DNA of 64,000 bases from Ophelia neglecta (lineage: Eukaryota): positions 3,162,001-3,226,000 of the forward strand of contig OZ260666.1 in the NCBI GenBank assembly GCA_965285935.1. The letters run 5' to 3'. The notes under the pieces were generated by a model that worked only from the letters and a program-made list of their open reading frames with translations, searched no databases and was not told the DNA's origin. Position 1 is the stretch's first letter, and every line of letters starts with the position of its first letter. The position numbers and the translations under genes were made by a program. Of this stretch, positions 1-62,559 are shown one piece after another.

Positions 1-65
1 CAGCCAACTGAACCTCTAGCCTGCAGCCAACTGAACCTCTACCCTGCAGCCAACTGACAGCCTAG
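1..65. repeat. 23-bp minisatellite (CAGCCAACTGAACCTCTAGCCTG), cut by the window edge
   Basis: About 3 units visible; reverse complement of the array at 22945-23210. Confidence 0.9.
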
Positions 66-273: not shown

Positions 274-2821
274 CGGGCCACTGCTGATTATCTGGTCCAA
301 ACTTAAATACAAACAGCTTTCTATAAATTTTCATTATAAAAACCTATCCATCAAATGTTTGAGTACTTGACAAAATTGATGATTCTTTAAAACAGGTTCC
401 CTTCAAAGATATGTTTATACTGCTGTCAAACAAGTAACTATAAGACGGTGATAAATGCACCGTTTGAAATATAGACATATCGGTATGCCAAGCCGGCCAA
501 AAGGAGGAATGCATATACATCGCGTTTTATGAGCATCGCGCGAAAATTTAGATCCCGGCAGTGTAAAATGACACACCTGTGCTTTTTATACTAACTCATC
601 ATCATTTAGTTTACCTATTTTTCTTCAAATAATTTTTTCGAACAACAGAAACAGCCGTTAACTATTATCTATATACTTTGTATCTTAGCTCATTCGTACA
701 TATGGCGCCTTTACTTGTGACACAAAGCCCCCAAACCCCATGCAATCCCCAACAACCCACCCCCAAACTGATGCCACCAAATTCCATATTTTTCTTGAGG
801 TCACATATTACAATTAGACCTAAAGCCTCAAGGAAACTGGCATTTAAAAAAAAACATTGTAATCGTTACAAATTCCATATACAAAGTAAATCATTATTCA
901 ACACGTCTGACGGATATATACTTGAAAGATAAAGATATAATATTTGCTGCAATTCTTAATAACTAAACAAATAAGTACGATTTTATTTTTGAAAAAACAA
1001 TTGGTATGAGTAGTTTTATATTTAGATTTATATACAGTGCATTAACCAGGGTTACTGCTTCAGTGGAGTTATTAAGTGGTGTCAAATTTACTACACCACG
1101 AATTGCAATAACGAAACCATTCGATGTACAGAAGAAATGTACTAATATTGAAATCAGATGGTCATCAAATGTTAAACCTTAGGCCATGAAAAATACAAAC
1201 TTTAGTTGGCCTGCTCGCGCGCCTAGCTGTTTCCTCCAATTTCTCTCAACAAACAATGTTTTGGATTGTTGTTGGTACTCAAGAAAGTTGCGGAATTGTT
1301 TTTGTTTTGATAAATGATTTTAGTTGTGATCAAATTATATCTTAAACTTAAGAGAAAGAAACATTGCTTTGATTGTTAGTGGAAATTTAGCATGTATATG
1401 TAACCTTTGTTTATTAAGCTGATAAATAAGATATCTCTTTTGTGGGCTAAGTGAGTGCGTGTTAATTTTGCGCCGTCTCCCTAGCTTTTCGAAAACGCTG
1501 CGACACTAACCAAAGTTCATACTTTGCATTGTCTTGCTCTATTTATATATATATTCCGCGAAATTATTTCTAACCAGTCCTAATTTATCAGGAAGCAGTT
1601 GGGATGGTTATTTATTCTCTTTCCGATAATATTTTCAGTGGTATATGTTCAGGATGATAATTATTTTCCCGCGTTAGCTATGTTCATGGCACATTGGCAT
1701 ATTGACACCACACCCTGCCGCTCGTTAATGGCTATAAACCCTTCTTCAAGCATAATATTTGGTTAAAATAATATGACGTACGTAAATGGGTGTAAAGATA
1801 TGAAGGAAGCTGAGCGTTTCCCTCAACCTGGTTTAGAAATATTACAAAGTCCGCCCAATCAAGCATTTGGAAAGGTTGTCAAGTTACAAGTACATTGCGT
1901 CAGCTGTCAATGCCTTAGCAAAAACGAGCGCCCTATTCTTTAGAAAGGCCCACATCCCAGCAATGTTCCGGATTCCCACCCGTTAGGAATTCTGGCCCCA
2001 AGTGCCGATCAGATTTAAATATTGTTTACTAGTTTAAGTGACCAACTGCCTCCATGGTTCTGATGCCATGCACTGTCCAAAAGCAGTCCCCGATATCCAC
2101 CCAAATTTTCTAATAATATTCTATTCCATCCATAGTCCCCCATCCCGTCCAAAAGCGATCCAAGTTCCAAATCCCATTCGAGGCCCCCGATACTATCAAA
2201 TCTCTTCAATCGCATCCGGAGTCCCCGATCCTACCTAAAGTCCCCAATCACAAGGTCTCAGATCTCCCCCAAAGTTCCGGATAGTACCCGAGATCTGCGT
2301 TACCACCCAAGCTCCTGACCTTACCCAAATTCCTAAATTTCACCTAGTATGCCATGTTCCGCATAAGTCACCCGTCCCATCCATATAACCTAACCCTATG
2401 CTTGGATGGTGCTGACCAAATCGCCCTTGATTTTCTTCCCCGCCACTGATCTAGTCCCATCCATTTTACACAGCCCAATAGCAGATTTAAAGTGCCCAAC
2501 TCCCAAGTCCCCGGACCCAAAGTCTCTGATTCCATTCCCCATCCTTGTCCCCTTCCGCTACTCTTGGTCCTCTCCCTCGTCGCTGATCGAATCCAAGTAT
2601 CTCACTCACGAACGGGACTACTTTTTTTCTTCCGGCTCCTATCCACTCTAGCATACAGGTACCTCAGAGGGTCGAGAATCGAACGGAGGCCGGGATCATG
2701 AGGAGATATTCCTACAGAATTCATAAAGTTTGCTTTTAAATTTATATTTTGGTTGAGTGGATGTTAGTGATGCGGAATATAGATAAGATATCCAGCATTG
2801 CAGGGCTTAAGTTAATCAAGA

Positions 2822-3629
2822 GGCTTGGGGGTAAATACCAGGGCACGAAAAGTTCTCACTAGCGCTACATTGAAGTCCCTTTACTATGCTTTTTTATATC
2901 AATATCTTGACTACTGTGTGGACATATGGGGGAGTGCCTGTAAAACATATATTGAACCACAGTTTATCATACAAAAAAGAGCAATCAGATTAATATGTGG
3001 TACGGACCGACTTGCCCATACGGCACCATTATTTTTAGAAGAAAGAATTTTACCAATTGATAGTATTTACAGATATAAATTACAAATATTGTTATATAAA
3101 CTAATGAATGGAATCCTCCCAATTGTCATATCTAGTTTGTATAAATTTAATTATAACATTCATGGTCATAGTACTAGAGGATCCAATAGCCTACACCTTC
3201 CAATGGTTAAAACTAATGTAATGAAACGCAGTATTATATACCAAAGTGTCATATCTTATAACAAATATAGGTCAGTCATCAACTACAACTGTTCTTTGCA
3301 TTCATTTAAATCATTTGTTAAAACAGTGCTCTAGCATTCCACATCAATAGTATGTACCAATATATCCCTAAAGCATTACCAGCACTCCTTTTGAATATTT
3401 TATATGAAGAATACTGTACTCTTTTTATTTATTTTGTATTAGCAAAATCATGTGTCTGTTGTATATATTTGCACAGGGTTCTGATGTACGCCATGACCAA
3501 ACGTATACTAATTATGTTCTCTTTATGAGGCCCATATAAGCTCCTAGCTTTCGTGGTCGCTTATAGTGATTTATATATCATTGTGTAAATATTATATAGT
3601 AACAATAAAAAGGATTGTCATAAAAAAAA
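2822..3629 (+). mobile_element. 5'-truncated CR1/L2-group LINE 3' end
   Basis: ORF 2825-3334 resembles the post-RT C-terminus (LYYAFLYQYLDYCVDIWG...QKRAIRLI...HTAPLF...SFKSFVK), followed by AATAAA and an A-rich tail. The flanks join without the insert in the homologous copies near 35125 and 63600. Confidence 0.8.
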
Positions 3630-3829
3630 GACACAATTTTACAACAAAGGAACTCCAAGCCCATCTAGCCGCAGTCCAGCACACCTTAGTCTAGTCAAAC
3701 TATTTCAAGTCATTCCTTGTTTTATTCCATCACAGCCAAATAAACAAGAATTAATTTTATTTATAGATTACTTGAAAGAAAATTGTGTGCTTAATAGTTG
3801 TCCATGATGATATGTTTACTCAAGTTTCA

Positions 3830-6453
3830 TCACATCTCACCTTGCCTGGCTGTATTCAAGTAAACCGGAGGTACTGGCATCCGACTCTCAGAATACCCGG
3901 ACGCGATAGAGCTGAAGCTACTAGAATATCCGTATTCACCGCTCTCTAGTAGGAAAACAAACATTTCAAACTTAAATCAGCGCGTTTTAAACAGGACAAC
4001 AACATTTCATTTTATCCTGGTATCCAAATCTGAATACATCATAAAATAAAATAAATTAAATAATCTTATTGTGGACATTGAATGAGGTCGAAACAAAATG
4101 TCTATACTATGAAATGTATTGTAGGATAAACTCGTGGTAAATATTCAAGATAAGGAAAGTCATAATGGATATCGGCTCACCGTCCATTTGAGGGTCAAAC
4201 ATGACGTTCTCTACCATGGTCGTGTCGTCATTTTCCTCATTATCGTCCTGACGGCCGGATTGCTGGTGATGGCAGCATGGCTCCTGACCGCAGCGTGGAT
4301 GGTGACCACACGATGGCTCCTGACAGCAGTACGGATGGTGACCGCAGAGTGGTTCGTGACGACATCTATGCACGTGATTGCCACTTGACACGTGACAACA
4401 GCGCTGCTCATGACGGCAACGTTGTTCGTGACAGCAGCCTGACACCTGACGACACATACGTTCGTGCGGACAGCTGAGCTCATGACAGTTTCTTTGCTCG
4501 TGTAGACAACCTGGTCTGGAACGACAGTGTTCGTCTGAAACGAGAATTGAAGTCGTTTGGGTTGAGGCAGCTCCATTTCTTTGTTTTGATTCTAGACCAA
4601 AAATAAGATTTATCTATACAGACATTCACCTTTGTCCTAGATTTTATGGCATGAAGGAGAGCATTTTGTTCTGTTATATATATGCGTTAAGGAATTATAT
4701 AAGACACTCACGTCGATAGCAGACCAGTATGATAAGGAGTACTACGGATATTAGGACACAAATTCCCGTGATTCCCACAATCAGTCCCAGAGTGACAGAA
4801 AGATGTACAACACCACCTGAAAAAAATCATAACTTCATGAAATAAACCAATACGATCGATGTATCAATTGATAGTAATTGCAGAAAAACACCAAATGCAA
4901 ATTTAGGGGAAGGGGGAGGGAAGTGTTGGTCTTCGGTCCACATTTTGTTTTAGCCAGTGTTTAGTAAGATGGGTTCAGCGGGGATCAGGGCGCTGAGTAT
5001 CGGACCTCACTCTGGGTGTGGACCATCATGCATACAGATAACCGATAACATGCACGTGTGAGTTCAATGACTTTCGGTACCTAAATTTGCAACGAGAATT
5101 TCATAGGTTTTAGAAACCACGTTGCTTAGCACGTTCAGTGTGCGTTGCTTACTTGAGTCTGACACTAGTGTAGAGCCAGCCTCTCTCCCTAGACAGGAGT
5201 ATTTATGGAACGGGTTCATAGTGCTGTGTTTCGCTATTATAAAGCTAGATTGGTTTGTTGTATTTCCGATAACAGCGCCATCTCGCAACCAAGTGTATGT
5301 CATCGGAAGTCGAACGTCTTCTGGCAAAGAGGTTGAAGTGACGTTACACATCAACTTAAAACCTTTTGTATCTATTTGGGCTGGAGATGGTTTTCCTGCA
5401 AAGAATCTGAATATGTTATCATTCAAATGAACCCAGCGAGGGCGATTAGTAGTAATAACGTGTGCTGCTTGGTATGACTCAAGAAGGAGCTTAATATGTT
5501 GACACATCGATTTTTCGCGGTTTTATTTACTGCTTTAGTGCAAGTATAAGAAAGAGCAACCTGTAGTTCATTTAACCAAGTATATCAAATATTGAAATTC
5601 GTCGAATCATTCATAAATTAATGAATTGCTCTATACAAAAGAAATATGTCCGCAGTTGCAAAATTAGTGTTATCTACATTGCTATACATTTCCCCTGGAG
5701 AAAAAAAATATGAACAAACAAAGGAGCGAAGATATTTAATACATGAGATACTACTTTAAGAGTTTAACCAACCCTGAAATATGCAATCTATGCATTGTCT
5801 AAGCGACTGTAATATATTAATAACTACATATATGAGACACTTCGTCAACAAGAAATAACATCTAATCTACACCTTTCAGGGCCGAGCGATTACGCAAAGG
5901 GAACTTACCCCAGACAAAAAGTGTATTGGTTTCACTATAGTTAGTACGACGACAGTTGTAGAGGCCAGCGTCATGTCTCGTGACATTTTTGAAGGTCATC
6001 TCTAGGCCGGTTTCAATTATCTTTACGTTGAGATGCTCACGACTGTATTTACTACTATTCCTTAATACCACACTCCCGTTCACAATGTTAAATGTGTTGA
6101 TATCGTTCTTATCAAAACATTTGAGTGGCTCTCTGCTATTTGTCTCAGGAAGATTCCACCACAATGTGGCCTTTTCACCAACATTCACTCTAGGGACTAT
6201 GCCTGAAGCAGCTGGAAATTGAAAGGCTAACTTTGTTTATTATTCTTTGCATACAATCTTAGTTCTTACCTTAAAAGCGGCCAGTTATGATGGATGATCT
6301 TGGGGTGAACACTTATGTACCAAATTAAAAATGTATTCTAAGAAATCTACAAACATCAATGTATAAAATCTGGTACTTACCACCAGGTGGTGTGCTCATA
6401 ACATCTGCTATCTTGCACAGACAGACTAATAGTACGATCGACTTTAACTCCAT
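3830..6453 (-). CDS. IgSF type-I membrane receptor, paralog A (~416 aa)
   Basis: Exons: 6453-6381 (signal peptide MELKSIVLLVCLCKIADVMSTPPG), 6211-5909 (V-like Ig, DAGLYNC), 5395-5153 (Ig2, LMC..YTWLRDG..YSC), 4816-4712 (TM), 4591-4181 (Cys/His-rich), 3945-3830 (ESGEYGYSSSFSSIASGYSESRMPVPPVYLNTARQGEM*). All introns are GT-AG phase 1 and the frame is open. Confidence 0.85.
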
Positions 6454-22761: not shown

Positions 22762-22944
22762 CGCTTGTACTGATAACAACAATTGCTCGATATCCGAAAT
22801 GTGTCTGACTGTAGGAAACTTAGTTAATTGCCATATAAATTACTAATTTTTCCCGTTCTGAAACAATGTAGGCCGGGACGAACGTTCACGCTATTAGAAA
22901 ATAGGTCTGTTTGTATGCTTCAACGCAGTTTTCCGCTAGGCTGT

Positions 22945-23210
22945 CAGTTGGCTGCAGGCTAGAGGTTCAGGTGGCTGCAGGCTAGTGGTTCAGTTGGCTG
23001 CAGGCTAGAGGTTCAGTTGGCTGCAGGCTAGTGGTTCAGTTTGGCTGCAAGCTAGAGGTTCAGTTGGCTGCAGGCTGGAGGTTCAGGTGGCTGCAGGCTG
23101 GAGGTTCAGTTGGCTGCAGGCTAGAGGTTCAGTTGGCTGCAGGCTGGAGGTTCAGTTGGCTGCAGGCTGGAGGTTCAGTTGGTGACAAGCTAGGAGTTCA
23201 ACTGGGAGCA
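22945..23210. repeat. 23-bp minisatellite, ~11-12 copies
   Basis: CAGTTGGCTGCAGGCTAGAGGTT head-to-tail with no spacers. Confidence 0.9.
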
Positions 23211-24597: not shown

Positions 24598-27500
24598 ATG
24601 GGGTCCGAGTTGATCGTCCTACTTCTATGTCTGTGCCATGTAGCAGATGTTATGACCGCACCAGCTAGTGGTAAGTACCGCACCACCTAGGGGTAAGTAC
24701 CGCACCAGCTAGTGGTAAGTACAGCACCAGCTAGGGGTAAGTACCGCACCACCTAGTGGTAAGTACCGCACCACCTAGTGGTAAGTACCACACCAGCTAG
24801 TGGTAAGTACCGCACCAGCTAGTGGTAAGTACCGCACCAGCTAGTGGTAAATACCGCACCAGCTAGTGTAATTTACCACACCAGCTAGTGGTAAGTTCCG
24901 CACCAGCTAGTGGTAAGAACCGCAACAGATAGTGGTAAGTACCGCGCTACCCAGTGGTAAGCACCGTGCCGCCTTTGTGGTAAGTACCCAACCACTTTGT
25001 GGTGAGTACCACGCCACCTTGTGTTAAGTACCCATCCATCTAGTGGTAAGACCCAGAATGGTGTAATGACTTGGGTTAGTAAGGTATTGGACGCCTTAAT
25101 ATGTCTGTGTTTAAAGGATAAAGATAAAGGTGTTTTCTGAATCATATTCACATTTGAAGAAGGCAAACATTATGAAGATGGATTTATTTATAACTTATAG
25201 AACCCTACAATGTGTAACTTCCACAGGTACAGTCACTCGAGTGAATATTGGCGACAACGCCATCCTGCGGTGGAAACTGCCGAAGGAAAATGACATAGAA
25301 CCAACAAAATGTTATGACACGAACAAGAACAACACATTTAACATTGTGAACATGACCGTGTTACCCAAGAGTGGTAACTTCAGCCTGGGCTTGTCTGAGC
25401 TTTTGAATGCAGGGAGAAACGAGATCAGCCTAACAATGACATTGACAAATGTCACGAGGGAAGACGCTGGTTCGTACAAATGTCGTCGTACTAGCTATAG
25501 TGAAACCAACACTGTTTTTGTCTGGGGTAAGTTTCCTTTGGGTTTTTCCGTGGCCCTGAAAGACTATGTGTCCGATATTTTAATTGGCGACTGAAAAAAC
25601 AATCAGTGAACTAGTAAATATATCGTCGTATTTTAGTATAAGTAAGACTTTCTTAATGATTTCTTTCATTAAATGTCTCCTCCCGTTTATTTTCTTCATG
25701 GTGAAGAATAGGACAATGTAACTCTCCTTTTCTAGAAGGAAAAATAAATATGCAACCTCAAACGTGTTTAATAATCGATATGAAAATAAACTATACTTCG
25801 AGCCATCCAGCAAACCATTAATCATAACATTTAGGTGTTCAAATATTTTACTGTTTTATCATATATATCAAGTAGTATCTTTAAATTTTAAAATGGTCAA
25901 GTAACTGCTATATTTTATACTTATCGCCCTCACTGGGTGCGATGGAATGAATTCATATCATTATGTTTGCGTTGCAGGAAAACCAACTCCAGCCATAATT
26001 GATACAGAGGGTTTAAAATTAATGTGTGACGTCATTTCCACCTCTCTACCAGACTACGTTCGACCTCCGATGACTTACAGTTGGTTACGAGATGGCGCTT
26101 TAATCGGAAAAACCACGGATGAGTCTACCTATACGATACCCATACACAGCATATTTAACCAGTTCTCTGAATACTCCTGTCGAGGGAGGGAGTATGGCTC
26201 AAGTCTACACTCAGACTCAAGTAGGCAAAACACATTAATAGTGGCTAGCAATATGGCTAAGCAAAACTGATTAAATTCATATCGACAACTTGCTATGGAA
26301 CGCTTGTATATTGGCGAACAGGGTATATTTGTCCAATGTGCTGCAACCCGCTGCCAAAAGTACCAATTGGAAAGCTGATAAATCCTTTGTCATGTACGAG
26401 GGGCGGAGAGGTGGGAATTACAGTCTATTAAGAGGTCGATCCCAAGTTTCGGAAATACTCCTGCCCCCCCCCCCCCCCCAACCCCGCAACTTGTATAGGG
26501 AGTATGTTAATCGTATGGTCAATATTAACATTACACACTATTTTGAACAATATACAAACGAGTTCTGCTATAATCCGCTTGCAGAACCGGATTGTCTACA
26601 ACTTTCCTACCCCTCGATCGTTTGTGTTTATTATACGAATATGAGCGTTTGTGTTTTAGGTGGCTCTGTACGGCTTCCTGTCTCTCCAAGACTGGTGGCG
26701 ACAATCGCAGGATTTTGTGCCATAACAATCCTTACACTACTTGTCGCACTATCCTGCTGTCAACGTGAGTGTATTTTCATTTCTTCAAAGTTAAGCACGT
26801 GTTCATATGCATTAAACTCCCTTGATATCATCGCAACCGTATCTCAATATTATAAATAACATTACTTGAGGGACTGACATAACAAGAATTCACAAAGATC
26901 TATTAGACTAAAGTTTAACACTGCTTTTATATTACATGTACATAATATAATATTATCTTACTGCCATTTTATCTTACACTATCTCGGCGCATCAAATTGT
27001 TATCTTTCCGAATCAAATAATCTTATTTTAATTTTGTTCTAGATTCAAAACAAAGAAAGCGAGCTGCATCAAGTTCCGTCACAAACGAACACGATCGTCA
27101 GAAGTCAGGTTGTCGTCACGAGAAACGCGACCGACACGAGCCAGGCTGCCAACACGAACCCATCTGTCGTCAGAAGTCAGGCTGCCATCATGAACCTATC
27201 TGTCGTCAGAAGTCAGGCTGCCATCATAAACCCATCTGTCGTCAGAAGTCAGGTTGCCATCACGAACAACGCTGCCATCATAGCCAAAGCCGTCACGAAT
27301 CAAGCTACAATCAAGCACCTAGTTGTTGTCACGAGGAAGGTTGCCGACCTAATCCCCGCTGTCTTCAAGAGACACTCAGCCGTCATGAGTCAAACCCCCA
27401 TCTGGAGACGACACTCCATGGTAACGAGCCGCCCAACCGTCAGAACAATGATGAACATGTTGAGAGCATCACGGTAGAGAAGAGCGCCACGTTTCAGCCT

Positions 27501-27849
27501 CAATTGGAGGGTGAGTTTAAGGCCATTATTTGACCGGCTAGTATAGTGAAGTGTTTCCGCGAGCTCTCATTATCCTGCCTGACATCCCCATTTGTCAGAC
27601 TATTCCACTGACTAAATCAAGCGTCCAATATCCTTCAAACTTCTTTACTTTTGCGTTAAAACTATTCTTTCACAATAATCGAAACTTCCTAGATGAATTA
27701 ATTAATGTTTCTTCATTTTCTAATTCGTGTCTTAACCACCAGAGGCCAGCGAGGGACAGCCTAGCACAGTCTTACCTACAGAAGTTCGATATTCATTTGT
27801 TTGGGTACCACGACCTCCGCCTTGTGTGCAGAAAGCGACCCAAAAATGA
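24598..27849 (+). CDS. IgSF type-I membrane receptor, paralog C (~431 aa), ITIM-bearing
   Basis: Exons: 24598-24670 (signal peptide MGSELIVLLLCLCHVADVMTAPAS), 25227-25526 (V-like), 25978-26220 (Ig2), 26660-26764 (TM), 27043-27510 (Cys/His, CRQKSGCHHEPI x3), 27743-27849 (EASEGQPSTVLPTEVRYSFVWVPRPPPCVQKATQK*). Confidence 0.85.
24655..25051 (+). repeat. 22-bp minisatellite spanning the exon 1/intron 1 junction of C (~18 copies)
   Basis: Unit ACCGCACCAGCTAGTG|GTAAGT, degenerating toward the 3' end. Confidence 0.9.
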
Positions 27850-39982: not shown

Positions 39983-42900
39983 ATGACATATAATATATCA
40001 AAGACACCGGTGATCCCCGCAGTCTTATGCTTGTTTATACTGCCACTCCCATATATCGCCGCCTCGTCAAAAAGCGAAGGTAGGTTCACTGTTATCAATT
40101 TTCACTCGTAACATACGAATATTTGTTTCCTGATAAGCCTTGGGGGGGGGGGGGGCAATAATACATAAAACTATATTACTGGAATAAATTCAATACAAAA
40201 CAAATGTGTTGGCTTATCCTACATTGCCTATTTATCCCTTAGGGTGATTAGGCAAAAAGAAAATCACAACGATTTTGGCTTTCACTGTCTAACATTCCGT
40301 TTGCTGGCACAATGCGCAGGTCATCCCTGACTACAGATAACCGACAGATCCAGTGGACGTTCTCTTTTTAATATAACGCTGTGCGGTGCAATTGTTTCCT
40401 TTTGATCCTCATTCTTAACATGTTCATGGTCTATTTAAATTTCCAGTATGGCTCCAGCGTCCCGGCCAAGTGTACGCTTGTGTTGGGTACACTGCCAAAC
40501 TACTCTGGAACTACAACCACAGCTTGGGAGAGTTTGATTCAGTATACTTTCACAAGATTCGCCCAGATTGGAGGTTCCTGGGTGGTAAGAACAAGAACGG
40601 CGCGCTATTGGTTGATATGCCTAGGGCTAACCTGGTTGAAGGGAGCACTTATGGGCTGTCGTTGACGGGAATAGTGATGGAAGACAGCGGAATATATGAA
40701 ATAGAAGTTTACCTGCAGCGCCCTTCCAAGGTGATTCACAACCAAGCAGAACTAATCGTGCTTATCCCATCAGGTACAGCCAAAATTTAAAATTTCGTAA
40801 CGGCTTACAAACTTAACACGATCAGGTTATTATTATTGTTGTATATGTAGATATAAACATGCACTGTACATATGCCTTTGTGTCTTTCAGCATGCCCCGA
40901 TCGACACCGATTTCAGCAGCCAGTCATCACAATAAGAGAGGCAATAGGCGGGTCGGGCAATGTAATACACATATATAATAACACACTGGAGGTGTCCCGG
41001 CCAGTGAATGTCAGCCTCATTGTTGCCATACCAACAGCCGACTCGCCTGTTACATGTACTATAACCCTGGAGGGAGTCCACATCCATACCTGCCAAGGGG
41101 GGTCAGACAATGTGGTTGAATGCGAGAAGAAATTCGCTCTAGGTCAAGGTCAACATCAGATAATAACCCTAAACCTGACCTTCATAGCCTACGAACCCAG
41201 CATTACAACACTCCATGTGTACACCAAACCAGGTATGCGGTCTTCATTGAAGATAATAATTTTGTTATGACCAAGTCGAGAACTCACCGGGTCACCCATG
41301 TTATTATTGACTGGGCGAGTGGCATGATAATCCGACGGCCATCCAATCTCCTTAAAACTACCACACCCTTGTAATATCATCTTGACTATATCAATGATTT
41401 TGCATTGACTGACATACTCTTGCCAATGAGTGAAACAAAGTTAAATGAGTATGCGCGTTCACAATGACCCCTACCTCGGCCTCTTATAGCTTATAGTTCA
41501 GCCTTACCAATGAACGAAGCCTATCACACAGCATTATTAAGCGCAATATGAGTATGAGGATAGGGTATTAAAACCAATCAAGATCAAAGGTTTTACCAAC
41601 TATAGAGATATGTCTATGGGCAAGATAGAATTTGAGTCTAACCATGATATTGTTATGTCCATTAACGATCACAAGGTGTCAAATCAAGCCATAATTAAAC
41701 ATTCATTTTAAATAGTCCGCTATTTGTTGGCATATGCGGCTTTTAATACAAGCTAGGCTTTTGCCCGGCATGTTTTGTTATTTTTTTCGCATCTTTTAAA
41801 ATAACCTATTTTTTATAATCACATGTCAGTCGCCCCAGATGGCCCTAGATATGACCAAGCGTCAACACAACACCTGGATACGGATTCCTCAGTATCAACA
41901 CCCACCACGGTGCTCTTATGGTCTAGCACTGTGACCCAGCAAGAGAATACTACTTCAGCCAACGAGACAGCTTATTGGTTGCACACCAGAGGGCGCAGTA
42001 TGACGACAGGGGAGGTGTCAGTTATCGCGATCTGTGCCATAGCGCCCCTTTCAATTCTGGGTGTGACCGTAGTTATGTACGTTATATGGAATCGTCACAG
42101 AACGGAAAAAGGACATCAGTCTAAGGTAATTTTGCCTCCACTAGCGCAATAGTTAAGTTTGAGTTTCACAGCTGTGGCTTTATTTGCAGTCACGCTAATA
42201 AAACATAACATGAAAATTCCAAGTATTTTTAAATCAAACGTCCGCTTTTATTTTTCGGTTATCAAACTGATTTTCAATCACTGGTCTAACCAAAACTAGT
42301 CAGCATCTACTTTTTCCATAAATAACATAAATACTGTGACCTAGTCCTAGGTGAGAAGTGTTAACGACCTGTCCGATCGTTAACAAAGAGCAGACACAAT
42401 AAGTTTATCGCTATGGGCAGTCATTTTGAAGTTGTCTTGTTTACTGTAAACCAAGAAATATTCACTAACAGGAAAACTTTCCTGATCAGATTTCACCATA
42501 TATTGCTTACATGCAATTTTGTGACTGAATAATTCTAAGTAGTGACTTCCTGTGAAACAAGCTACAGAAGGAGATAGCAAAGAGGCAACTTCCACGAGCA
42601 GGAAATATTTGTTATGATCGCGAAATTTTTATGGTCGCGATATTTTTGTGATTTTAAAAACCCCCATAGCACGAAACATGGACCATGAAAGTACCATCTT
42701 AGACACTTTATGTGATATTGGACATCCTTTATCCGTTTAAACTTAATGCAATTATATTTCAGCAGGACGCCGATTATGGAGATGGGGTAAATTGTCGACA
42801 CCCAGATAAAAACGCCCTATCTATGTCTACTACTGAAACTACTGAGGAGCCTGGCAGCCCACCACAAGCCCCGCCACGTCACTCGGCTCGAACAAACACG

Positions 42901-45900
42901 TCTGAGAGAAATCCGCCTGACGTCAACGTAACAAATGACAGTATACAACCAGCCCACTTGTCTTGTGACAACGAGACACCACCGACAGTCCCAGTTCTCA
43001 GCAACGATACCCCTGAACAATCAAATGTAGAAATAGACAGGGAAACCCCTGACTTATTAGTGAGTAATTCATTTTTAAATATTCAACCAATAAACAGATT
43101 AATTGTAGTTGCTAGCGAACACATGCAATACTTCAATTAACTTCTCGTGGTAACGTGTGCATTAACAATATTGGGATGCGATGTTGGTGTAATGGTGGGA
43201 CGATAAACAAAGAGCAGACACAATAAGTTTATCGCAATGGCCAGTCATTTTGAAGTTGTCTCGTTTACTGTAAACCAAGAAATATTCACTAACAGGAAAA
43301 CTTTCCTGATCAGATTTCACCATATATCGCTTAAATGCAATTTTGTGACTGAATAATTCTAAGTAGTGAATTCCTGTGAAACATAAGGTACAGAAGGAGA
43401 AAGCAATGAGGCAACTTCCACGAGCAGGTAATATTTGTTATGATCGCAAAATTTACATGGTCGCGATAATTTTGTGATTTTTCAATCACTGGTCTAACCA
43501 AAACTAGTCAGCATCTACTTTTTCCATAAATAACATAAATACTGTGACCTAGTCCTAGGTGAGAAGTGTTAACGACCTGTCCGATCGTAAACAAAGAGCA
43601 GACACAATAAGTTTATCGCTATGGGCAGTCATTTTGAAGTTGTCTTGTTTACTGTTAACCAAGAAATATTCACTAACAGGAAAACTTTCCTGATCAGATT
43701 TCACCATATATTGCTTACATGCAATTTGGGACTGAATAATTCTAAGTAGTGACTTCCTGTGAAACAAGCTACAGAAGGAGATAGCAAAGAGGCAACTTCC
43801 ACGAGCAGGAAATATTTGTTATGATCGCGAAATTTTCATGGTCGCGATATTTTTGTGATTTAAAAAACCCCCATAGCACGAAACATGGACAATGAAAGTA
43901 CCATCTTAGACAGTTTATGTGATATTGGACATCCTTTATCCGTTTAAACTTAATGCAATTATATTTCAGCAGGACGCCGATTATGGAGATGGGGTAAATT
44001 GTCGACACCCAGATAAAAACGCCCTATCTATGTCTACTACTGAAACTACTGAAGAGCCTGGCAGCCCACCACATGCCCCGCCACGTCACTCGCCTCGAAC
44101 AAACACGTCTGAGAGAAATCCGCCTGAGGTCAACGTAACAAATGACAGTATACAACCAGCCCACTTGTCTTGTGACAACGAGACACCACCGACAGTCCCA
44201 CTTCTCAGCAACGATACCACTGAACAATCGAATGTAGAAATAGACAGGGAAACCCCTGACTTATTAGTGAGAAATTCATTTTTAAATATTCAACCAATAA
44301 ACAGATTAATTGTAGTTGCTAGCGAACACATGCATTACTTCATTTAACTTCTCGTGGTAACGTGTGCATTAACAATATTGGGATGCGATGTTGGTGTAAT
44401 GGTGGGACGATAAACAAAGAGCAGACACAATAAGTTTATCGCTATGGGCAGTCATTTTGAAGTTGTCTCGTTTACTGTAAACCAAGAAATATTCACTAAC
44501 TGGACAACTTTCCTGATCAGATTTCACCATATATCGCTTACATGCAATTTTGTGACTGAATAATTCTAAGTAGTGACTTCCTGTGAAACATAAGCTACAG
44601 AAGGAGAAAGCAATAAGGCAACTTCCACGAGCAGGAAATATTTGTTATGATCGCAAAATTTACATGGTCGCGATAGTTTTGTGATTTTAAAAATGCCCAT
44701 AGCACGAAACGTGGACCATGAAAGTACCATCTTAGATAGTTTATGTGATATTGGACATCCTTTATCCCTTTAAACTTAATGCAATTATATTTCAGCAAGA
44801 CGCCGATTATGGAGATGGGGTAAATTGTCGACACCCAGATAAAAACGCCCTATCTATGTCTACTACTGAAACTACTGAGGAGCCTGGCAGCCCACCACAA
44901 GCCCCGCCACGTCACTCGGCTCGAACAAACACGTCTGAGAGAAATCCGCTTGAAGTCAACGTAGCAAGTGACAGAATACAGCCAGCCCACTTGTCTTATG
45001 AAAACGAGACACCACCGACAGTCCCACTTCTCAGCAACGATACCCCTGAACAATCAAATGTAGAAATAGACAGGGAAACCCCTGACTTATTAGTGAGTAA
45101 TTCATTTTTAAATATTCAACCAATAAACAGATTAATTGTAGTTGCTAGCGAACACATGCATTACTTCATTTAACTTCTCGTGGTAACGTGTGCATTAACA
45201 ATATTGGGATGCGATGTTGGTGTAATGGTGGGACGATAAACAAAGAGCAGACACAATAAGTTTATCGCTATGGGCAGTCATTTTGAAGTTGTCTCGTTTA
45301 CTGTAAACCAAGAAATATTCATTAACAGGAAAACTTTCCTGATTAGATTTCACCATATATCGCTTACATGCAATTTTGTGACTGAATAATTCTAAGTAGT
45401 GACTTCCTGTGAAACATAAGCTACAGAAGGAGATAGCAAAGAGGCAACTTCCACGAGCAGGAAATATTTGTTATGATTGCAAAATTTTCATGGTCGCGAT
45501 ATTTTTATGATTTTAAAAACGCCCATAGCACGAAACATGGACCATGAAAGTACCATCTTAGACATTTTATGTGATATTGGACATCCTTTATCCGTTTAAA
45601 CTTAATGCAATTATATTTCAGCAGGACGCCGATGATGGACAAGGGGTAAATTGTCGACACCCAGATGAGGACGTCATATCTATGTCTACTACTGAAGAGC
45701 CTGGCAGCCCACCACATGCCCGGCCACGTCACTCGGCTCGAACAAACACGTCTGAGAGAAATCCGCCTGAGGTCAACGTAACAAAAGACAGTATACAACC
45801 AGCCCACTTGTCTTGTGACAACGAGACACCACCGACAGTCCCACTTCTCAGCAACGATACCCCGGAACAATCAAACGTAGAAATAGACAGGGAAACCCCT

Positions 45901-48060
45901 GACTTGTTAGTGAGTAATTCATTTTTAAATATTCAATCAATAAACAGATTAATTGTAGTTGCTAGCGAACACATGCATTACTTCATTTAACTTCTCGTGG
46001 TAACGCGTGCATTAACAATATTGGGATGCGATATTGGTGTAATGGTGGGACGATGAACGAACAGCTGCATAGAATTTGGAAAAATGTCTTGGATGAAAAT
46101 TAATAATTACTAAATTAAGAATAAAGAATGTATCGGCAGGACGCTGCCAGCTGACCAACACATTAAATTCAAACAAAAGACTAGTATAAAAGGTGCAGGC
46201 AACACCAGAGCTCGTGTTATGGTTATGAAAAACGAACGTAAGCGTGAAATTCCACCATTCTTTCGGTCCCTGATAAATATAACGTATTAGAATGCATCTA
46301 AAAAAAGTTAGCAAGACAAATGTGAAGCCAGCCCTTTAACAACAAAGTGAGCACCATTAAGATGCAACTACAGTAAGTGAACCAATTTGACAAATGTAGA
46401 AGATATTGAGCACCTTTCCTTTCGATATTGAGGGACACCTGTTTGGCGGGACAGTACCATAAACATCGTCAGGAGTTTATGCACTGTTGTTAAACCCTGC
46501 GTGTCTATATTAGATCAAAAGGTCATAATTATTATTGAGTCTGTCTATTTTCTACAGGTAAAAGAATTTGCAAGACAACCAGAACATGGTATAGGCGAAC
46601 AACACCCAACAGAAACGACAACTCCTTCCAATTCCAGCCTGAAAGATTATCCGTCCCTGTTTGATTCCCTGTCAAAAGGTCATCTGACTCCAACAGATAC
46701 CGTAACGGGACTGATACAGCAGAAGTCCTTGCCAGAACATTCTTCGTACGGGTCAGATACAGAGGCAGGGGATCATCCGTCCCAATTAGATAACGAACTG
46801 GGAAAAGGAAGTGCGCTCCATTTAGGTTCAGAGTCAGGAAGTCACACGTCTCAGCCATCTTGTTTGCCTCCGTCGAGTTCCGCATCAGAAGGCCGTTCGT
46901 CCCATTTGAAATCCTTGAAGGGGGGTCGAACATATCTGTCAAATTCCGTGCGAGGAGAATGTACATCTCAGCCGGCTTTAAGACAAGAAGATCGCCCGAA
47001 CAAGCCAGTTTCTAGGCAAAAACTTCGTCCGGAAGATCGTCCGTCACAGTCAGATTCAGGAAATGGAGATCATCAGTCACTGACGGGGTCAGGATCAGGG
47101 GATCGTCCGTCACAGCCAGGGTCAGTAGCAGGGGACCGTGCGTCACAGCCAGGTTTGGGACCAGGGAACCGTGCATCACAAACATGTTTAGGACCAAAAG
47201 ATCGTTCGTTCAATCCAAGTTCAGTGGCAGAATATCGTCAGACAAAACCAGCTACAAGCCAACGAGTCGCGACACACCTAGGGTCAGCAACAGGAGACTG
47301 TCCGTCACCAACAGGGTCAGGATTAGGCGATAATCAGTCACGGGAAGGTTTCAGACAGGGAGAGCTTGCGCCACAGCCAGGGTTAGAACAAGGAGATTGC
47401 CCGTCACAGACAGGATCAAGCCCAGGGGATGCAACGTCACAGCCAGGTTCAGGACCAGGAGATCATGCTTCACAGCCTGGGTCAGCACAAGGAGATACTT
47501 CGTCAAAACAAGGTCCGAGATTAGGAAATCAATCCTCACAGCCAGGTTTAGGAACAGGAAATCGTTCGTCACAGCCAGAGTCAGGGCTATACGTCTGTCC
47601 TTCAGAGACAAGCGCAGGACCAGGAGAGAATCCTGTGTCAAGGTCAGGTTTAGAACAAAAAACTAGTCCGCCACAGCAACCGTCAGGACTAGAAGATCTT
47701 CGCTCCAGGCCGTTTGCAGGACAAGAAGTCCGCCAGCCACAGCCAGTTTCAGGATCAGGCGGCCGTCCGTCTATGTCGGATTCTTATCCCGGAAAGGATC
47801 CATCCCAATCGAAATCCAAATCAGAAGAATGTCCATTTGTACGATCGGTTACTACGAAGGATGCAGCCATGGGCGGCATATTAGCACACCGCATCTCATT
47901 CATTACCAAGAAGCCTCCAGGAGCCCCTAATCAAGATAAGGTTATTGAAATGCTACCACAAGACCCTTCTTCGACTGACACGGATATTCCCACCACTATC
48001 AATACTTCTCCAACAGCCCCAGGTAAAACAGAAGGTTTGTTAACGGTTAGTAAAGAATAA
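39983..48060 (+). CDS. Ig-like type-I membrane protein F (up to ~1247 aa) with a very long repetitive cytoplasmic region
   Basis: Exons: 39983-40079 (signal peptide MTYNISKTPVIPAVLCLFILPLPYIAASSKSE), 40447-40773 (V-like lacking the B/F cysteines: KLLWNY...DSGIYEIEV), 40891-41232 (beta-rich domain), 41830-42125 (S/T stalk and TM VSVIAICAIAPLSILGVTVVMYVIW), four repeat exons 42763-43059, 43970-44266, 44796-45092, 45622-45909, and 46558-48060 (G/S/P/Q 11-aa repeats). Splice phases are compatible throughout. Confidence 0.7.
42270..46055 (+). repeat. Tandem array of ~826-bp exon+intron units (4 exon copies plus one partial intron copy)
   Basis: Exon starts at 42763, 43970, 44796 and 45622 (spacings 1207, 826, 826); the introns are near-identical. 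Confidence 0.95.
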
Positions 48061-48737: not shown

Positions 48738-49114
48738 GTTTCATGGAATTTACCGGAGAATCTTTCATGATTATGATCATTAGCACAAATATAATATACC
48801 CAATTAAATTGCTCGAGTACAGATAGACTACATTGACAAAATCTTCAATTAACTAAGAAACTACACCATAGAGAGGACCAGAACTTGCATAGCAGCCTTA
48901 TAAGATCCCCAGGAACATCTAGTGTCCGGACTTGAACGGTAAAAGCTGATAATTTTGACAAATTATTAACGCAAATATTTTTGTATAGGCCTTATAACAT
49001 TCCCAACAAGGTTCCACGTGAGTGACTTTCAAACCTGGCCAGTACATACGCACTACAGACTGACCAGGGCCTATACACGTCCCTATTCACAGCTGAAAAA
49101 TCAATAGTGTAGCT

Positions 49115-50197
49115 ATGTCAGTCACCTCTAGGCCTTCAATGGAAGAATGTTTACAAGACAAGAGTCTTTGGCTGAAAGTGGATGCGGAACGCATGCGACG
49201 AATGACAGAACCCCAAATGGCTGAAACTATACTTGAACTAGCAAAACAAGAAGAAGTTTCTGTCTCCCCCGACCATTTTCTTGGTGCCCAATACATTCCA
49301 CCAAGAAAAATATGGATAATTTACCTGGCAGACCGAAATACGCACGCCTTGTTGCTATCTTTGGGGTCAGTCAATGTAGATGGAAGCAACTACTCTATCA
49401 CCGACTTTAGCGAAAAAAAATCTTTTACAACAAGGAGCAAAAATATCAGGATTTCCATTCATGGAATTCCGTTCCATGTCTGTGACGAGGAAATAACCGA
49501 ATGGATTACTCAGTTTGGAACCGTGGTGACACCTGTCCAGAAAGCTTTTGCAAAGCAAAAGCCAGATGACTCAAAGTTCAAGTCCCTTCTTACAGGGAAC
49601 AGGTTTTGTTTTGTCTCAGAAATAACAAATCCTATAGCACGCTACACAAAATACACCCTAGCAGATCCTTGTGACCCCAAAACACTCATCGAGCTGCCGA
49701 TAGTCATCTTCCATAATGGCCAGCCAGTCAACTGCAAATACTGCAAGGGCGACCATGGAGTTGAGGACTGCACAGTGCTTCTGGCAAGAGTAAAATGCTC
49801 TTTGTGTAAAGAGCGAGGCCACAGACCTGAGCAATGCCCAACCAACGTTCAGGAGAAAGAGAAATCGGAAAGTTCGGACAGCAGCGGAAAAAAAAGTGAC
49901 TCTGAACAAGAAACACTGAAATCAGGAGAGTCTTCTTCGGACAAAAACGCTACAAGTACACCAGCAGAAAATGTCAAAGAAAAACCAGAGATCAAAGAAC
50001 AGGACTCTGGGTCAAAAGGAGAGGCTTCGAAAAAGGAAAAAAAAAAGAAAAAAGCAGAACAGCAATCCAAACAATCCAGCGACCAACTGGGTATAGAACA
50101 GTTCATGACAGAAACACCAAATGTGCGACCAAAGCGCAAGAATGTTCTTACCCCGGTTGAAAATGAATCCAAGCAACGAAAAAGTGAAAAGACTTAA
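49115..50197 (+). CDS. LINE ORF1p (gag-like; RRM-like region plus two zinc knuckles)
   Basis: ISIHGIPFHV..FG; CKYCKGDHGVEDC and CSLCKERGHRPEQC; basic low-complexity C-terminus. Confidence 0.9.
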   Translation: MSVTSRPSMEECLQDKSLWLKVDAERMRRMTEPQMAETILELAKQEEVSVSPDHFLGAQYIPPRKIWIIYLADRNTHALLLSLGSVNVDGSNYSITDFSEKKSFTTRSKNIRISIHGIPFHVCDEEITEWITQFGTVVTPVQKAFAKQKPDDSKFKSLLTGNRFCFVSEITNPIARYTKYTLADPCDPKTLIELPIVIFHNGQPVNCKYCKGDHGVEDCTVLLARVKCSLCKERGHRPEQCPTNVQEKEKSESSDSSGKKSDSEQETLKSGESSSDKNATSTPAENVKEKPEIKEQDSGSKGEASKKEKKKKKAEQQSKQSSDQLGIEQFMTETPNVRPKRKNVLTPVENESKQRKSEKT

Positions 50198-50361
50198 ATG
50201 ACTTCAAATCCTATTTATTCAAACACATCTTTCGACGACGAATTTCCGCTACTCCACTATTCAGGGAATAGCTTTATCGATCCTAACAAATTTTGGCTTA
50301 TAGGCCTATACTTATATAATTTTCAACTAGATGTAATATATGTGTAAATTTGAAACTTGTA

Positions 50362-53300
50362 ATGACAAAATTGATTACGGTAAATTGTAGAGGTCTGAAG
50401 CAGAATCTGAAACGAAGAACTATTTTTGAGTATTTTAAACGAAATTACATTGATATAGCTTTACTACAAGAATCCTACATCCAGGAAAGTGACGTAAATA
50501 GATGGAAAATGGAATGGGGAGGTCATATGTTTTATGTACCGGGATCAGCCCATAGCTGTGGTGAAGTTATACTTATTCATAAGAAAGCTAAATGCGAGAG
50601 TTTGAACATTGTAGAAAAAACCTCAAGGATGTTAGCTGTATCCTTTCAACTTGAGGATGAATTCTATATACTGGTTAATTTATATGTTCCAAATAAGCAC
50701 GAAGAAAAAGTTAGCTTTATGAAATTTGTTAAAGGAAAAATAAAAATGTTAGTTCGGAGTTATCCCGAATATTTTATGGTGATAGCTGGGGATTTTAACT
50801 GTTCACTGCAGACAGAATTAGACATATTAGCGGGAAATCCCCACTTAAATAGTGAAATTGCATCTTTTAAGGATATTTTAGAAGACAATAATTTGAAGGA
50901 TATCTGGAGACTTCGGCACCCGGGGGAAAAAAACTTCACCTGGCGCCATAAGTCGTTAAATATTGTACGACGATTAGATTATATATTAGTTAATAATAGG
51001 TTACTAGATAAGATTATATCGGCAGATATAGTAGATGTCCCTCTTGCTGATCATAGAGGGGTATTAATGAAATTGGGTTCCCCCAATAAGGACAGAGGAC
51101 CCTCCTACTGGAAACTGAATAATCAATTGTTACGAGAAAGGGTTTATATCGATAAAATAAATGAAATTATAAAAAGTGTAAATGAAAACTATAAAAATGT
51201 TCGTCCGGATATAAAACTGGAAATTTTAAAGACAAAAGTGAAGTTTTTCTCCTTGGAATATAGTAAGCAGCGCTCAAAACGAAATAAATCTAAATACAAC
51301 AGCCTATCAGAGAAGGTCAAAATAGCTAATGAGAATTTATCAAAGGATCCAACCAATATATTCTTAAAAAATTTATCAAACTCCTGTCAAAAAGAACTTG
51401 AATTACATGAAATTGAATTGACCAAGGGAGCCCAAATTAGATCGAAATATAAATGGATACAAGAAGGGGAAAAAAGTACGAAGTTCTTTCTGAATTTAGA
51501 GAAAGAAAGAGGCATTGAAAAAATAATAACAAAAATTGTAGATGAACAAGGACTCTTATATGAAAATCGAGAACAAATATTGGAGCAAATTTTCCTTTTC
51601 TACCAGAAACTATACTGTAAAGATATACTCTTCAATGAAATCACACTAGACCAATTTATCGCAGACTTACCCTTACCAAAACTTACTCAAGAAGATTTAA
51701 ATTTATGCGAAGGCTTGCTCAGTATGGATGAATGCACAAACGCCCTTAAAAGCATGAAAAACGATTCAAGTCCCGGTATTGACGGGTTAAGTGCTGCGTG
51801 GTACAAAACTTTTTGGTGTAAAATTAAGGTGTTGGTGGTAGAAGCATTAAATTATGCACAAGCTTCCGTATGTATGACCAAGTCCCAAAGAACTAGCATT
51901 ATAATTATCCATCATAAAGGCAAAAAACTGCCCCGAGAAAACTTGACAAATTGGCGACCAATTTCATTAAGTACAACAGATTATAAAATAGCAGCTAAGG
52001 CCATTGCAAATCGGATAAAGAAGGTACTGCCAAATTTAATCAGCCCCGACCAATCCGGTTTCATAAAGGGTCGATCTGCTAGTGACATAATAAGGGCAAT
52101 AAACGATATTATAGAATATACAGACATTAAAAATATTCCTGGCATATTGATAGCCCTCGATTTTCAAAAGGCTTTCGACAGCATTTCAAAGGAATTTATG
52201 TTTAAATGTCTAGAAATTTTCGGTTTTGGACCTTTGTTAGTAAACTGGGTAAAAACATTAAATTATTCAAATAATGCAAAAGTTTGCCATGGCGGATGGT
52301 TTACAAATCCTTTTAAGCTTGAAAGGGGCATGCGGCAGGGATGTCCCCTCTCGCCTTTAATCTTTATACTTGCTTTAGAAATCCTCTCATGTAAAGTGAG
52401 GGAGTCACGAGATATTAAAGGGATACCATTGAAAAATATACATGGTAACTACACCTACACAAAACTCCTTCAATTCGCGGATGACAGCACTGGCTTAGTC
52501 AGTGATGAAGAATCCTTACATAACTATTTTACTCTTATTGACTCTTTCTATATAATCTCCGGTCTGAGACTAAATAAATCAAAAAGTGAGGCTGTCTGGC
52601 TTGGGTGTTGGAAATTCCGGCGAAAACAGATAGGAAATCTGAAATGGCATTTATATCCTGACAACAAAATAAAAATCTTGGGTGTATATTTCAATAACAC
52701 AAGTGGTGCCTCAAATTTGGATGAAAATTTTAATCCGAAAATAGAAAAATGTAAATCTATAATGAAGTCAATGATACAACGAGGTCTGTCTATTCTTGGT
52801 AAAATTCAAGTTGTTAAATCTTTATTATCAAGTCTATTTGTTCATCTTATGCAAAGCATTATTTTTCCCCAACGTATTTTGGATCGTCTTAATAGATTAT
52901 TTTTTAATTTCATTTGGGCAAATAACTACGAGCAAGCTATATCTAACAAAGCTTTAGATAGGGTAGCTCGTCAAACTATTATTAGACAATACAGAGAAGG
53001 TGGGCTTCGTATGATAGATATAAATTTCTTTTATAAACAACTTCTTTTTAAATGGGTCGGTAAGCTTTTATTCAGTGAGACGGCATCATGGAAGGTTATC
53101 CCCTCTGTTTTTTATAATCACTTTGGTAGAGAATATAGCGTATTTAATAGTTATGTCAAATTTAAAAATTTCAGAGGTATGCCAACTGTAAAACCTCGCT
53201 ATTGGTCTCATTTACTGGAATTGTGGCTAGATCAAAAATATATATGTAGGTATAACAAGGTCAATGTTCTCTTTAATAATAGCCACATTGTGTATCATGG

Positions 53301-54066
53301 AAATGTTATATTCATAAAGAGATGGATAGATGCAGGGATAACATATGTACATGATATCTTGGATAGAGGTGTTATATCATACGAGAAGTTGACGGAAGTT
53401 ATTCCAGATTCAACATTAACCAAATGGGAATTTAATATAGCAAGAAATGCCATTGGAAATACAGACGTGTGCGCTTTGAAGGAATGTAGATCCCAGGTGT
53501 TTTTTAATGACCTAACTATATGTGAAAACTTAAAATCAAATTTACTTGGAAATCAGTTCTTGTTATCTCTACCAGATACTGCATCCTCAATATGTAGATA
53601 TTGGACCCGAAAATACTGTTGTCATGAAATTCCACCTGAGATATTAGAACTAGCAAGTAATGTCTGTAAAGAGCCTAGGCTAATTTCCTTGCAGTGGAAA
53701 ATATTGCATGCAGTGTATCCTACTAATATATATTTGCATAAAATTGGGAAGACTGATACGACATTATGTAATATATGCAGTATCGACGAAACGCTAGAAC
53801 ATCTCTTTTTCCATTGTACCAGGTCACAGCACTTATGGAAACTAGTCGCTGAAGATGTATCACGGTTGCTTAAAAAGAGAATTGTACTTACAGAACGTGA
53901 AGTTATATTGGGCTTAAACCCTGATAAAAATAACAAATTAGTAAATTATCTGATTCTTTTGGGAAAGCTAGTTATAGGTAAAAAACGATTTTATGACAGT
54001 CACCCTAATGTATCCATACTCTATGAAAATGAGAAATATTGGAGAAAACTTGAAATTATTGTTTAG
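50362..54066 (+). CDS. LINE ORF2p (APE endonuclease, reverse transcriptase, C-terminal zinc finger)
   Basis: TVNCRGL, LQES, GDFN, RLDY, DHR; WRPISL, DFQKAFD, RQGCPLSP, QFADD; CNIC..ETLEHLFFHC. First ATG at 50362; uninterrupted. Confidence 0.95.
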   Translation: MTKLITVNCRGLKQNLKRRTIFEYFKRNYIDIALLQESYIQESDVNRWKMEWGGHMFYVPGSAHSCGEVILIHKKAKCESLNIVEKTSRMLAVSFQLEDEFYILVNLYVPNKHEEKVSFMKFVKGKIKMLVRSYPEYFMVIAGDFNCSLQTELDILAGNPHLNSEIASFKDILEDNNLKDIWRLRHPGEKNFTWRHKSLNIVRRLDYILVNNRLLDKIISADIVDVPLADHRGVLMKLGSPNKDRGPSYWKLNNQLLRERVYIDKINEIIKSVNENYKNVRPDIKLEILKTKVKFFSLEYSKQRSKRNKSKYNSLSEKVKIANENLSKDPTNIFLKNLSNSCQKELELHEIELTKGAQIRSKYKWIQEGEKSTKFFLNLEKERGIEKIITKIVDEQGLLYENREQILEQIFLFYQKLYCKDILFNEITLDQFIADLPLPKLTQEDLNLCEGLLSMDECTNALKSMKNDSSPGIDGLSAAWYKTFWCKIKVLVVEALNYAQASVCMTKSQRTSIIIIHHKGKKLPRENLTNWRPISLSTTDYKIAAKAIANRIKKVLPNLISPDQSGFIKGRSASDIIRAINDIIEYTDIKNIPGILIALDFQKAFDSISKEFMFKCLEIFGFGPLLVNWVKTLNYSNNAKVCHGGWFTNPFKLERGMRQGCPLSPLIFILALEILSCKVRESRDIKGIPLKNIHGNYTYTKLLQFADDSTGLVSDEESLHNYFTLIDSFYIISGLRLNKSKSEAVWLGCWKFRRKQIGNLKWHLYPDNKIKILGVYFNNTSGASNLDENFNPKIEKCKSIMKSMIQRGLSILGKIQVVKSLLSSLFVHLMQSIIFPQRILDRLNRLFFNFIWANNYEQAISNKALDRVARQTIIRQYREGGLRMIDINFFYKQLLFKWVGKLLFSETASWKVIPSVFYNHFGREYSVFNSYVKFKNFRGMPTVKPRYWSHLLELWLDQKYICRYNKVNVLFNNSHIVYHGNVIFIKRWIDAGITYVHDILDRGVISYEKLTEVIPDSTLTKWEFNIARNAIGNTDVCALKECRSQVFFNDLTICENLKSNLLGNQFLLSLPDTASSICRYWTRKYCCHEIPPEILELASNVCKEPRLISLQWKILHAVYPTNIYLHKIGKTDTTLCNICSIDETLEHLFFHCTRSQHLWKLVAEDVSRLLKKRIVLTEREVILGLNPDKNNKLVNYLILLGKLVIGKKRFYDSHPNVSILYENEKYWRKLEIIV

Positions 54067-54206
54067 AAAATAAAAAAAAATCCCCTGTATTGTTAGTATC
54101 AATTAGATATCGTACATATACCATTCATCCCCTAACCACGTGGGAATGTAGGTATAATTATAGTGCAAAGCGTGGTTAAGAAAAAATGAGAGAAAAAAAT
54201 AAAATC

Positions 54207-54253
<47 letters not shown>

Positions 54254-62390: not shown

Positions 62391-62559
62391 TATCTCTTAA
62401 GGCCAACAGCTCAAATAAGGAGAGTATATTCAAAATTTTCGGTAGCAAATTTGGCCACAAAACAACATACCTAGGTCAAATTCTTTGTAATGCCAAAAGT
62501 TTCTTAACCAACCGACTCTGTCACACTGTATGATTCCTTTGTAAACCCTTATTTAAATT

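Follow-up and report, generated by a model that had tools for sequence, protein, structure and literature searches.

Which of many near-identical splice donors does a transcript use when the donor itself has been multiplied in tandem, and does their number matter? This question is raised by gene C, a predicted receptor gene of Ophelia neglecta, in which the end of the first coding exon and the start of the following intron are repeated about 18 times. The window analysed is a stretch of 64,000 nucleotides (G000:C9:3162001-3226000) in this 762-Mb animal genome, and the surrounding 1.214 Mb were read as well. In the following, a slash marks the cut at a splice site, and plain positions are those of the window. 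Gene C was mapped as follows.

24598..24670, + strand: coding part of exon 1 (73 nt, phase 1), signal-peptide-like; the cluster holds 36 homologous copies of this exon
24655..25051, + strand: mirage minisatellite, 18 x 22 bp, with unit 1 lying across the exon 1/intron 1 boundary
24671..24676, + strand: donor 1 (GTG/GTAAGT), the sole donor from which exon 2 is joined in frame
24688..24690, + strand: TAG in frame within unit 2, ahead of donor 2, found by read-through translation
25052..25226, + strand: unique remainder of intron 1, to the acceptor AG at 25225-25226; its start resembles the post-donor intron start of A- and D-type paralogs
25227..25526, + strand: exon 2, an Ig domain, V-set-like (Pfam ig PF00047, E 5.8e-6, above the cut-off)
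25978..26270, + strand: exon 3, a putative second Ig-like domain, possibly skipped or terminal, which reads to a stop
26660..26764, + strand: exon 4, a putative hydrophobic transmembrane-like segment, phase 1-1
27043..27510, + strand: exon 5, a His/Cys-rich repetitive tail, which ends at a phase-1 donor

The start codon of exon 1 is the ATG at 24598, and the predicted receptor would consist of a signal-peptide-like segment, a V-type Ig domain, a second Ig domain of uncertain use, a hydrophobic segment and a His/Cys-rich tail. The 36 exon-1 copies of the cluster are 9 of A-type, 8 of B-type, 6 of D-type and 13 of C-type. No clear in-phase donor for exon 3 was found in the C-type genes, where this exon runs into a stop; exon 2 joins exon 4 in frame, so the genes may encode a membrane form with one Ig domain and a secreted form with two. 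The receptor could not be assigned to a named family, and one similarity search gave no match. A further search returned 81 matches, mostly generic multi-Ig proteins, including four full-domain matches at 33-39% identity which are nameless, and the cluster-level matches were V-set-type clusters only. The domain architecture and the clustering of the genes suggest an immune or recognition role.

The repeat itself is well defined. TRF finds a 22-bp tandem repeat at 24655-25050 with 18.0 copies (84% matches, score 499), whose first unit is formed by the last 16 nt of exon 1 (24655-24670) and GTAAGT, just as the first-pass annotation of this DNA had described it from the letters. Units 1-13 are homogeneous, while units 14-18 are diverged. 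An exact G/GTAAGT stands in 11 of the 18 units and G/GTRAG in 15, which bears out the claim that most copies keep a consensus donor. In the whole window GGTAAGT occurs 25 times against 7.7 expected (0 of 100 shuffles reach 25), and 11 of the 25 fall inside the array at 24655-25051.

Joining donor 1 to the acceptor (25226/25227) gives an open frame into the Ig exon. Reading on past donor 1 gives GGT AAG TAC CGC ACC ACC TAG with the stop at 24688-24690, and the cut of donor 2 (24692/93) lies 2 bases 3' of this TAG. Each of the 15 later donors tested yields a 30-aa product when joined to the exon 2 acceptor, and no frame-restarting ATG was found within the array 3' of the start of unit 1. The earlier view that only the first donor is productive is thus upheld for gene C.

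The same annotation had held that the other paralogs carry a single copy. It turned out that this is right for the A, B and D genes of the window and for all 23 non-C exon-1 copies of the cluster, which have a single donor and an intact exon 1, and wrong for the 12 other C-type genes. All 13 C-type genes of the ~1.1-Mb cluster contain an array, with 4, 5, 8, 18, 18, 19, 32, 34, 39, 45, 58, 166 and 179 units (45-fold range). Since the array is present in all 13 C-type copies and in none of the 23 others, it is an old mark of the C-type subfamily and not a peculiarity of gene C. Among the non-first units of the 13 genes, 499 of 612 keep G/GTRAG, and a stop stands at the place of gene C's TAG in 11 of the 13 genes; the two shortest arrays have 2-3 later donors ahead of the stop, and these are out of frame.

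In twelve of the 13 C-type genes the exon 1(-2)-4-5 frame is open and each mapped junction has GT/AG; the 166- and 179-unit genes, which hold 130-143 G/GTRAG copies, are among them. The exception is the 34-unit gene, with a stop in exon 5. If the choice among 130-143 equal donors were random, less than 1% of the transcripts of the two longest-array genes would be productive. The open frames are weak evidence for first-donor use, because the 166/179 pair is very young (zero coding differences), the indels of exon 5 track the 36/72-bp repeats within it, and exon 1 alone has a low pN/pS (0.31, against 0.96 in exon 2 and 1.29 in exon 4). The idea that long arrays occur only in pseudogenes was rejected, since the five longest-array genes (39-179 units) keep an open exon 1-2-4-5 frame. 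These five have lost the exon 3 acceptor together with half of exon 3, and because the breakpoints are common to all five (one event), the coincidence of long arrays and exon 3 loss is not usable as a correlation.

Several further observations concern the cluster and the window. The genes at G000:C9:3160417 (-) and 4049848 (-), with 5 and 4 units, lack both Ig exons, and exon 1 joins the transmembrane exon in frame, so that a receptor without ectodomain is predicted. At G000:C9:3511517 (-), donor 1 is GTAGGT, weaker than donors 2 and 3 (GTAAGT), and the frame is intact, which makes this gene a natural test of donor position versus strength. The cluster at G000:C9:~3.06-4.16 Mb is composed of 8-20 kb segmental duplicates with 95-99.5% identity. 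The same 23-bp minisatellite lies at window positions 1-57 and 22944-23182, in opposite orientations, upstream of C-type genes. At 42703-45990 (+) there are four near-identical open frames of ~145 aa, ~0.8-1.2 kb apart, which form a tandemly repeated exon of another gene. Open frames of 366 and 1248 aa followed by a poly(A) run at 49097-54250 (+) belong to what we take, from its motifs, to be a full-length LINE, and 59318-62474 (-) is presumably a second, reverse-transcriptase-like element, again labelled by motif.

How the units arose and turn over can be partly read from their order. Most A- and D-type paralogs have ACCAG right after their single donor, several of them also have ACC at the start of the 16-nt exon end, and a ACCAGAAT-like intron start lies 3' of the last unit in most C-type genes. 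The array may have begun with a single slippage duplication in the C-type ancestor, aided by the ACC that occurs twice, 16 nt ahead of the donor and again directly behind GTAAGT. Block-wise unequal exchange would then have lengthened and shortened it, which kept the 5' and middle units alike while old, diverged ones remained at the 3' edge, and the pattern of such exchange is visible: the mean mismatches to unit 1 of gene C are 1.1 for the first five units, 1.5 for the middle and 5.1 for the last five. This gradient is the turnover pattern that has been described for mirages (PMC3087553). Two C-type genes whose flanks are 100% (upstream) and 99.8% (downstream) identical carry 166 and 179 units, and the difference consists of repeated blocks of ~30 units in which degraded donors were copied along. 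The two may be paralogs or alleles, and if they are alleles, 166 versus 179 is allelic variation.

A mirage is a head-to-tail repeat of minisatellite size whose unit crosses a real exon-intron boundary, whose copies retain potential splice signals and whose length is unstable. Here we find a repeat of 22 bp x 18.0; a boundary placed by homology to the 23 array-less paralogs with the same donor position; signals in 15 of 18 units in gene C and in 499 of 612 across the subfamily; and 4-179 units among paralogs, with block duplications between identical upstream flanks. Besides, all later donors in 11 of the 13 genes are intronic consensus donors behind an in-frame stop, as is characteristic of latent 5' splice sites.

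This type of repeat is already known from human F7, IFI6 and CBS and from lancelet Adh3 and globins; what is new here is a whole 13-gene subfamily with the array, 4-179 units and 12 of 13 open frames. PMC1557585 states that the 37-bp VNTR in F7 intron 7 uses only the most upstream functional donor, including with 8-12 units, that the next two sites are also used in vivo in the minisatellites of IFI6 (6-16) intron 2 and CBS intron 13, that the LMNB2 and PDGF boundary minisatellites use the first site only, and that globin duplication results on donor choice are conflicting. Lancelet mirages are described in PMC3087553 and PMC3902484 as length-unstable with undisturbed splicing, the cases being Adh3, troponin C, the globins BflGb6 and BflGb9, and PGBD5. 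Splicing-associated tandem repeats (spl-TR), whose length goes with splicing or with the level of expression, are described in PMC10078293.

Gene C resembles human F7 (Borensztajn et al. 2006) in that unit 1 spans the exon end and the donor, the intronic pseudo-donors are identical and the copy number varies. The F7 unit is 37 bp long and present in 5-9 copies, its donor is weak and its splicing was measured directly, whereas gene C has a 22-bp unit at its first exon and 4-179 copies in its subfamily; further differences are that its donors match the intronic consensus in full, that a stop precedes donor 2 and that a whole subfamily of paralogs is affected. In their intronic part the C-type donors are stronger than that of F7, which speaks for some leak. 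Repeated donors at an exon-intron border are shared with IFI6, CBS, LMNB2 and PDGF (15-26 in those genes, as summarised in PMC1557585). The lancelet mirages contain acceptor-side copies too and are backed by RT-PCR data, whereas in O. neglecta the enrichment among the sampled motifs is much stronger for donors than for acceptors, and the arrays reach 3.9-5 kb. Latent 5' splice sites (Nevo et al. 2012, PMC3510495) are likewise intronic consensus donors behind an in-frame stop; they are scattered single sites whose stress activation was shown in human cells, whereas the donors here are in tandem.

Donor-motif arrays turned out to be widespread in this genome. Triples of GGTAAGT number 2220 against 552 for the reversed control (163 of the 2220 from the receptor cluster), those of CAGGTAAG 2156 against 198, and those of AGGTGAGT 943 against 209, where all triples are overlapping matches and not independent arrays. 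Donor-motif arrays are thus 4-11 times commoner than reversed controls; for acceptor motifs the counts are 162 against 148 (TTTGCAG) and 79 against 33 (TTTTCAGG). As distinct arrays, CAGGTAAG occurs 8 times in the first 126 Mb of C1 and its control 2 times on all of C1. We sampled 14 arrays, all among the matches listed for GGTAAGT and CAGGTAAG. In ten of them an open frame of at least 20 aa runs up to the first donor; there were 18 such frames, of which 16 were scanned against Pfam. Three of the 14 start exactly at the exon end of a Pfam match (E <0.001, match reaching the donor).

G000:C1:~125.79 Mb, - strand (locus L140): APC1-like gene (APC1_C), with an array of at least 56 donors that covers 5 kb and continues past the end of the locus
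Locus L132: beta-mannosidase gene (GH2), 23 units, supported by Pfam and by PDB 6ddt (E 1.4e-22)
Locus L130: leishmanolysin-like gene (Peptidase_M8), 21 units, supported by Pfam, just under the cut-off

In all three, as in gene C, a stop precedes donor 2. Ten of the 14 sampled arrays have no tie to a known exon, and one further locus is weak. A G-patch-like frame at L139 was not counted (Pfam E 0.023, no PDB match), and a 21-bp x 90-copy array on C12 (L030:3635-5531, G000:C12) is unrelated, sharing an 11-nt core and no donor. A literature search found no genome-wide survey of mirages, which does not prove that there is none. It seems unlikely that all such genes, APC1 and beta-mannosidase among them, contain a tuned decoy system, and tolerance is the simpler reading.

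The explanation which we favour, with a probability of about 0.72, is that the array of gene C is a mirage minisatellite in which the first donor is probably dominant with a minor leak, and that it is tolerated and mostly neutral. Every later donor, standing behind the in-frame stop, is a latent 5' splice site. The first donor would win by position, being transcribed first and lying nearest to the cap and to unique exon sequence, and a minor leak to donors 2-3 would give the 30-aa product, which probably decays. Arrays would cost little, because the extra copies land in the intron, and could accumulate at donors genome-wide. The cap-binding complex favours the cap-proximal donor, and NMD can be weak where the stop lies near the start codon. 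First-donor use is supported because F7 minigenes with 8-12 units used the first site only (PMC1557585). Several points stand against it: splicing at the second and third sites does occur in IFI6 and CBS, and the F7 donor is weak and perfect pseudo-sites shifted splicing there, whereas the gene C donors fully match the intronic consensus.

Two results of our own also count against the favoured explanation, namely the ten sampled arrays without a known exon and the reduced variation at the donor. On a minimum spanning tree built from 156 unit types, which cover 603 of the 612 non-first units (the 9 with gaps were left out), positions +1..+5 show 30.9 changes against 45.9 expected, the lowest of 22 rotations (class-matched p 0.03, the variants sharing descent). 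In vitro, the intron-proximal one of two strong donors is often preferred; our literature search for this preference found no paper. Predicted accessibility does not separate donor 1 from later donors or from the donors of single-copy paralogs. Three runs from one sample look genomic, since introns and flanks are covered and no exon 1-exon 2 joint appears.

The first-pass annotation went further and proposed that the later donors compete by number and send transcripts to NMD or to the 30-aa product, so that array length would set the receptor level of each paralog or allele. Its anatomy, the unproductive downstream donors and the strong length variation among paralogs (4-179 units) all stand, and the retained G/GTRAG of 499 of 612 units, the 45-fold range and the length change between near-identical copies would suit it, as would the leak in IFI6 and CBS and the activation of latent donors by heat stress in human cells (PMC1557585 and PMC3510495). 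We nevertheless regard regulation by copy number as unlikely. Under first-come choice only donors 2-3 count, so the leak would saturate at once; F7 site choice is independent of copy number at 8-12 copies (PMC1557585) and lancelet mirages are without aberrant transcripts (PMC3087553). The same anatomy is found in beta-mannosidase and in housekeeping genes such as APC1, and pN/pS is equal in long- and short-array C-type genes (0.67 vs 0.68).

Somewhat less probable still is that self-complementary RNA, or U1 packed 22 nt apart, slows all donors, the first included, so that long arrays would lower output by slow splicing or intron retention and not by the choice of wrong donors. In folding predictions the array RNA is self-complementary: the donor's GUGGUA pairs with the UACCRC of other units at -114.5 kcal/mol (z -4.6), a stability that 13 of 300 column-shuffled arrays equal, and donor 1 is predicted to be paired; in this folding model, self-complementarity may help instability as well. 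However, the donors of single-copy paralogs also have near-zero predicted accessibility (0.000-0.066), the folding being a prediction, and mirages leave splicing undisturbed in lancelet (PMC3087553).

That the extra donors are selected, as U1 landing sites or back-ups which aid splicing or guard the transcript from early cleavage, is very improbable in our judgement. The lower variation at +2..+4, the persistence of the array in 13 of 13 C-type genes and the genome-wide excess over controls point towards it. Against this, G+1 varies about as much as the average position (9.9 events vs mean 9.2 on the unit tree, where the two GT positions together show 13.4 changes vs 18.4) and G-1 is not conserved either, the unit-variant counts are not independent events, no later donor rescues the frame in 11 of 13 genes, and 23 array-less paralogs do with an intact exon 1 and a single donor. 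An assembly artefact, in which arrays or length differences are misassembled or near-identical paralogs are alleles placed in tandem, is scarcely credible even with pairs of >99% identity (gene C and C9:3621993; the 166/179 pair), since the units differ in an ordered way, tail units are common to diverged paralogs, the contigs of three runs from one sample reach a pile-up of 481-5172 on the array, compared with ~30 on exact-match pieces of the rest of the gene, and the error would touch paralog number at most.

With the tolerated mirage as the favoured reading, the 13 paralogs, almost alike in exon 1 and carrying between 4 and 179 identical donors, are a natural dose series for the choice among equal 5' splice sites, and the excess of donor over acceptor arrays, if upheld with annotation, would support a first-donor rule on evolutionary grounds. 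A bolder idea, which we consider improbable, is that donors are hot spots of minisatellite birth and arrays of up to 179 donors a mutable volume control, in which leak or slowed splicing rises with length or stress and sets the output of each paralog. If it is true that length tunes the receptor level, a gene cluster with a probable role in recognition would have in the array a regulator that is simple and mutates fast.
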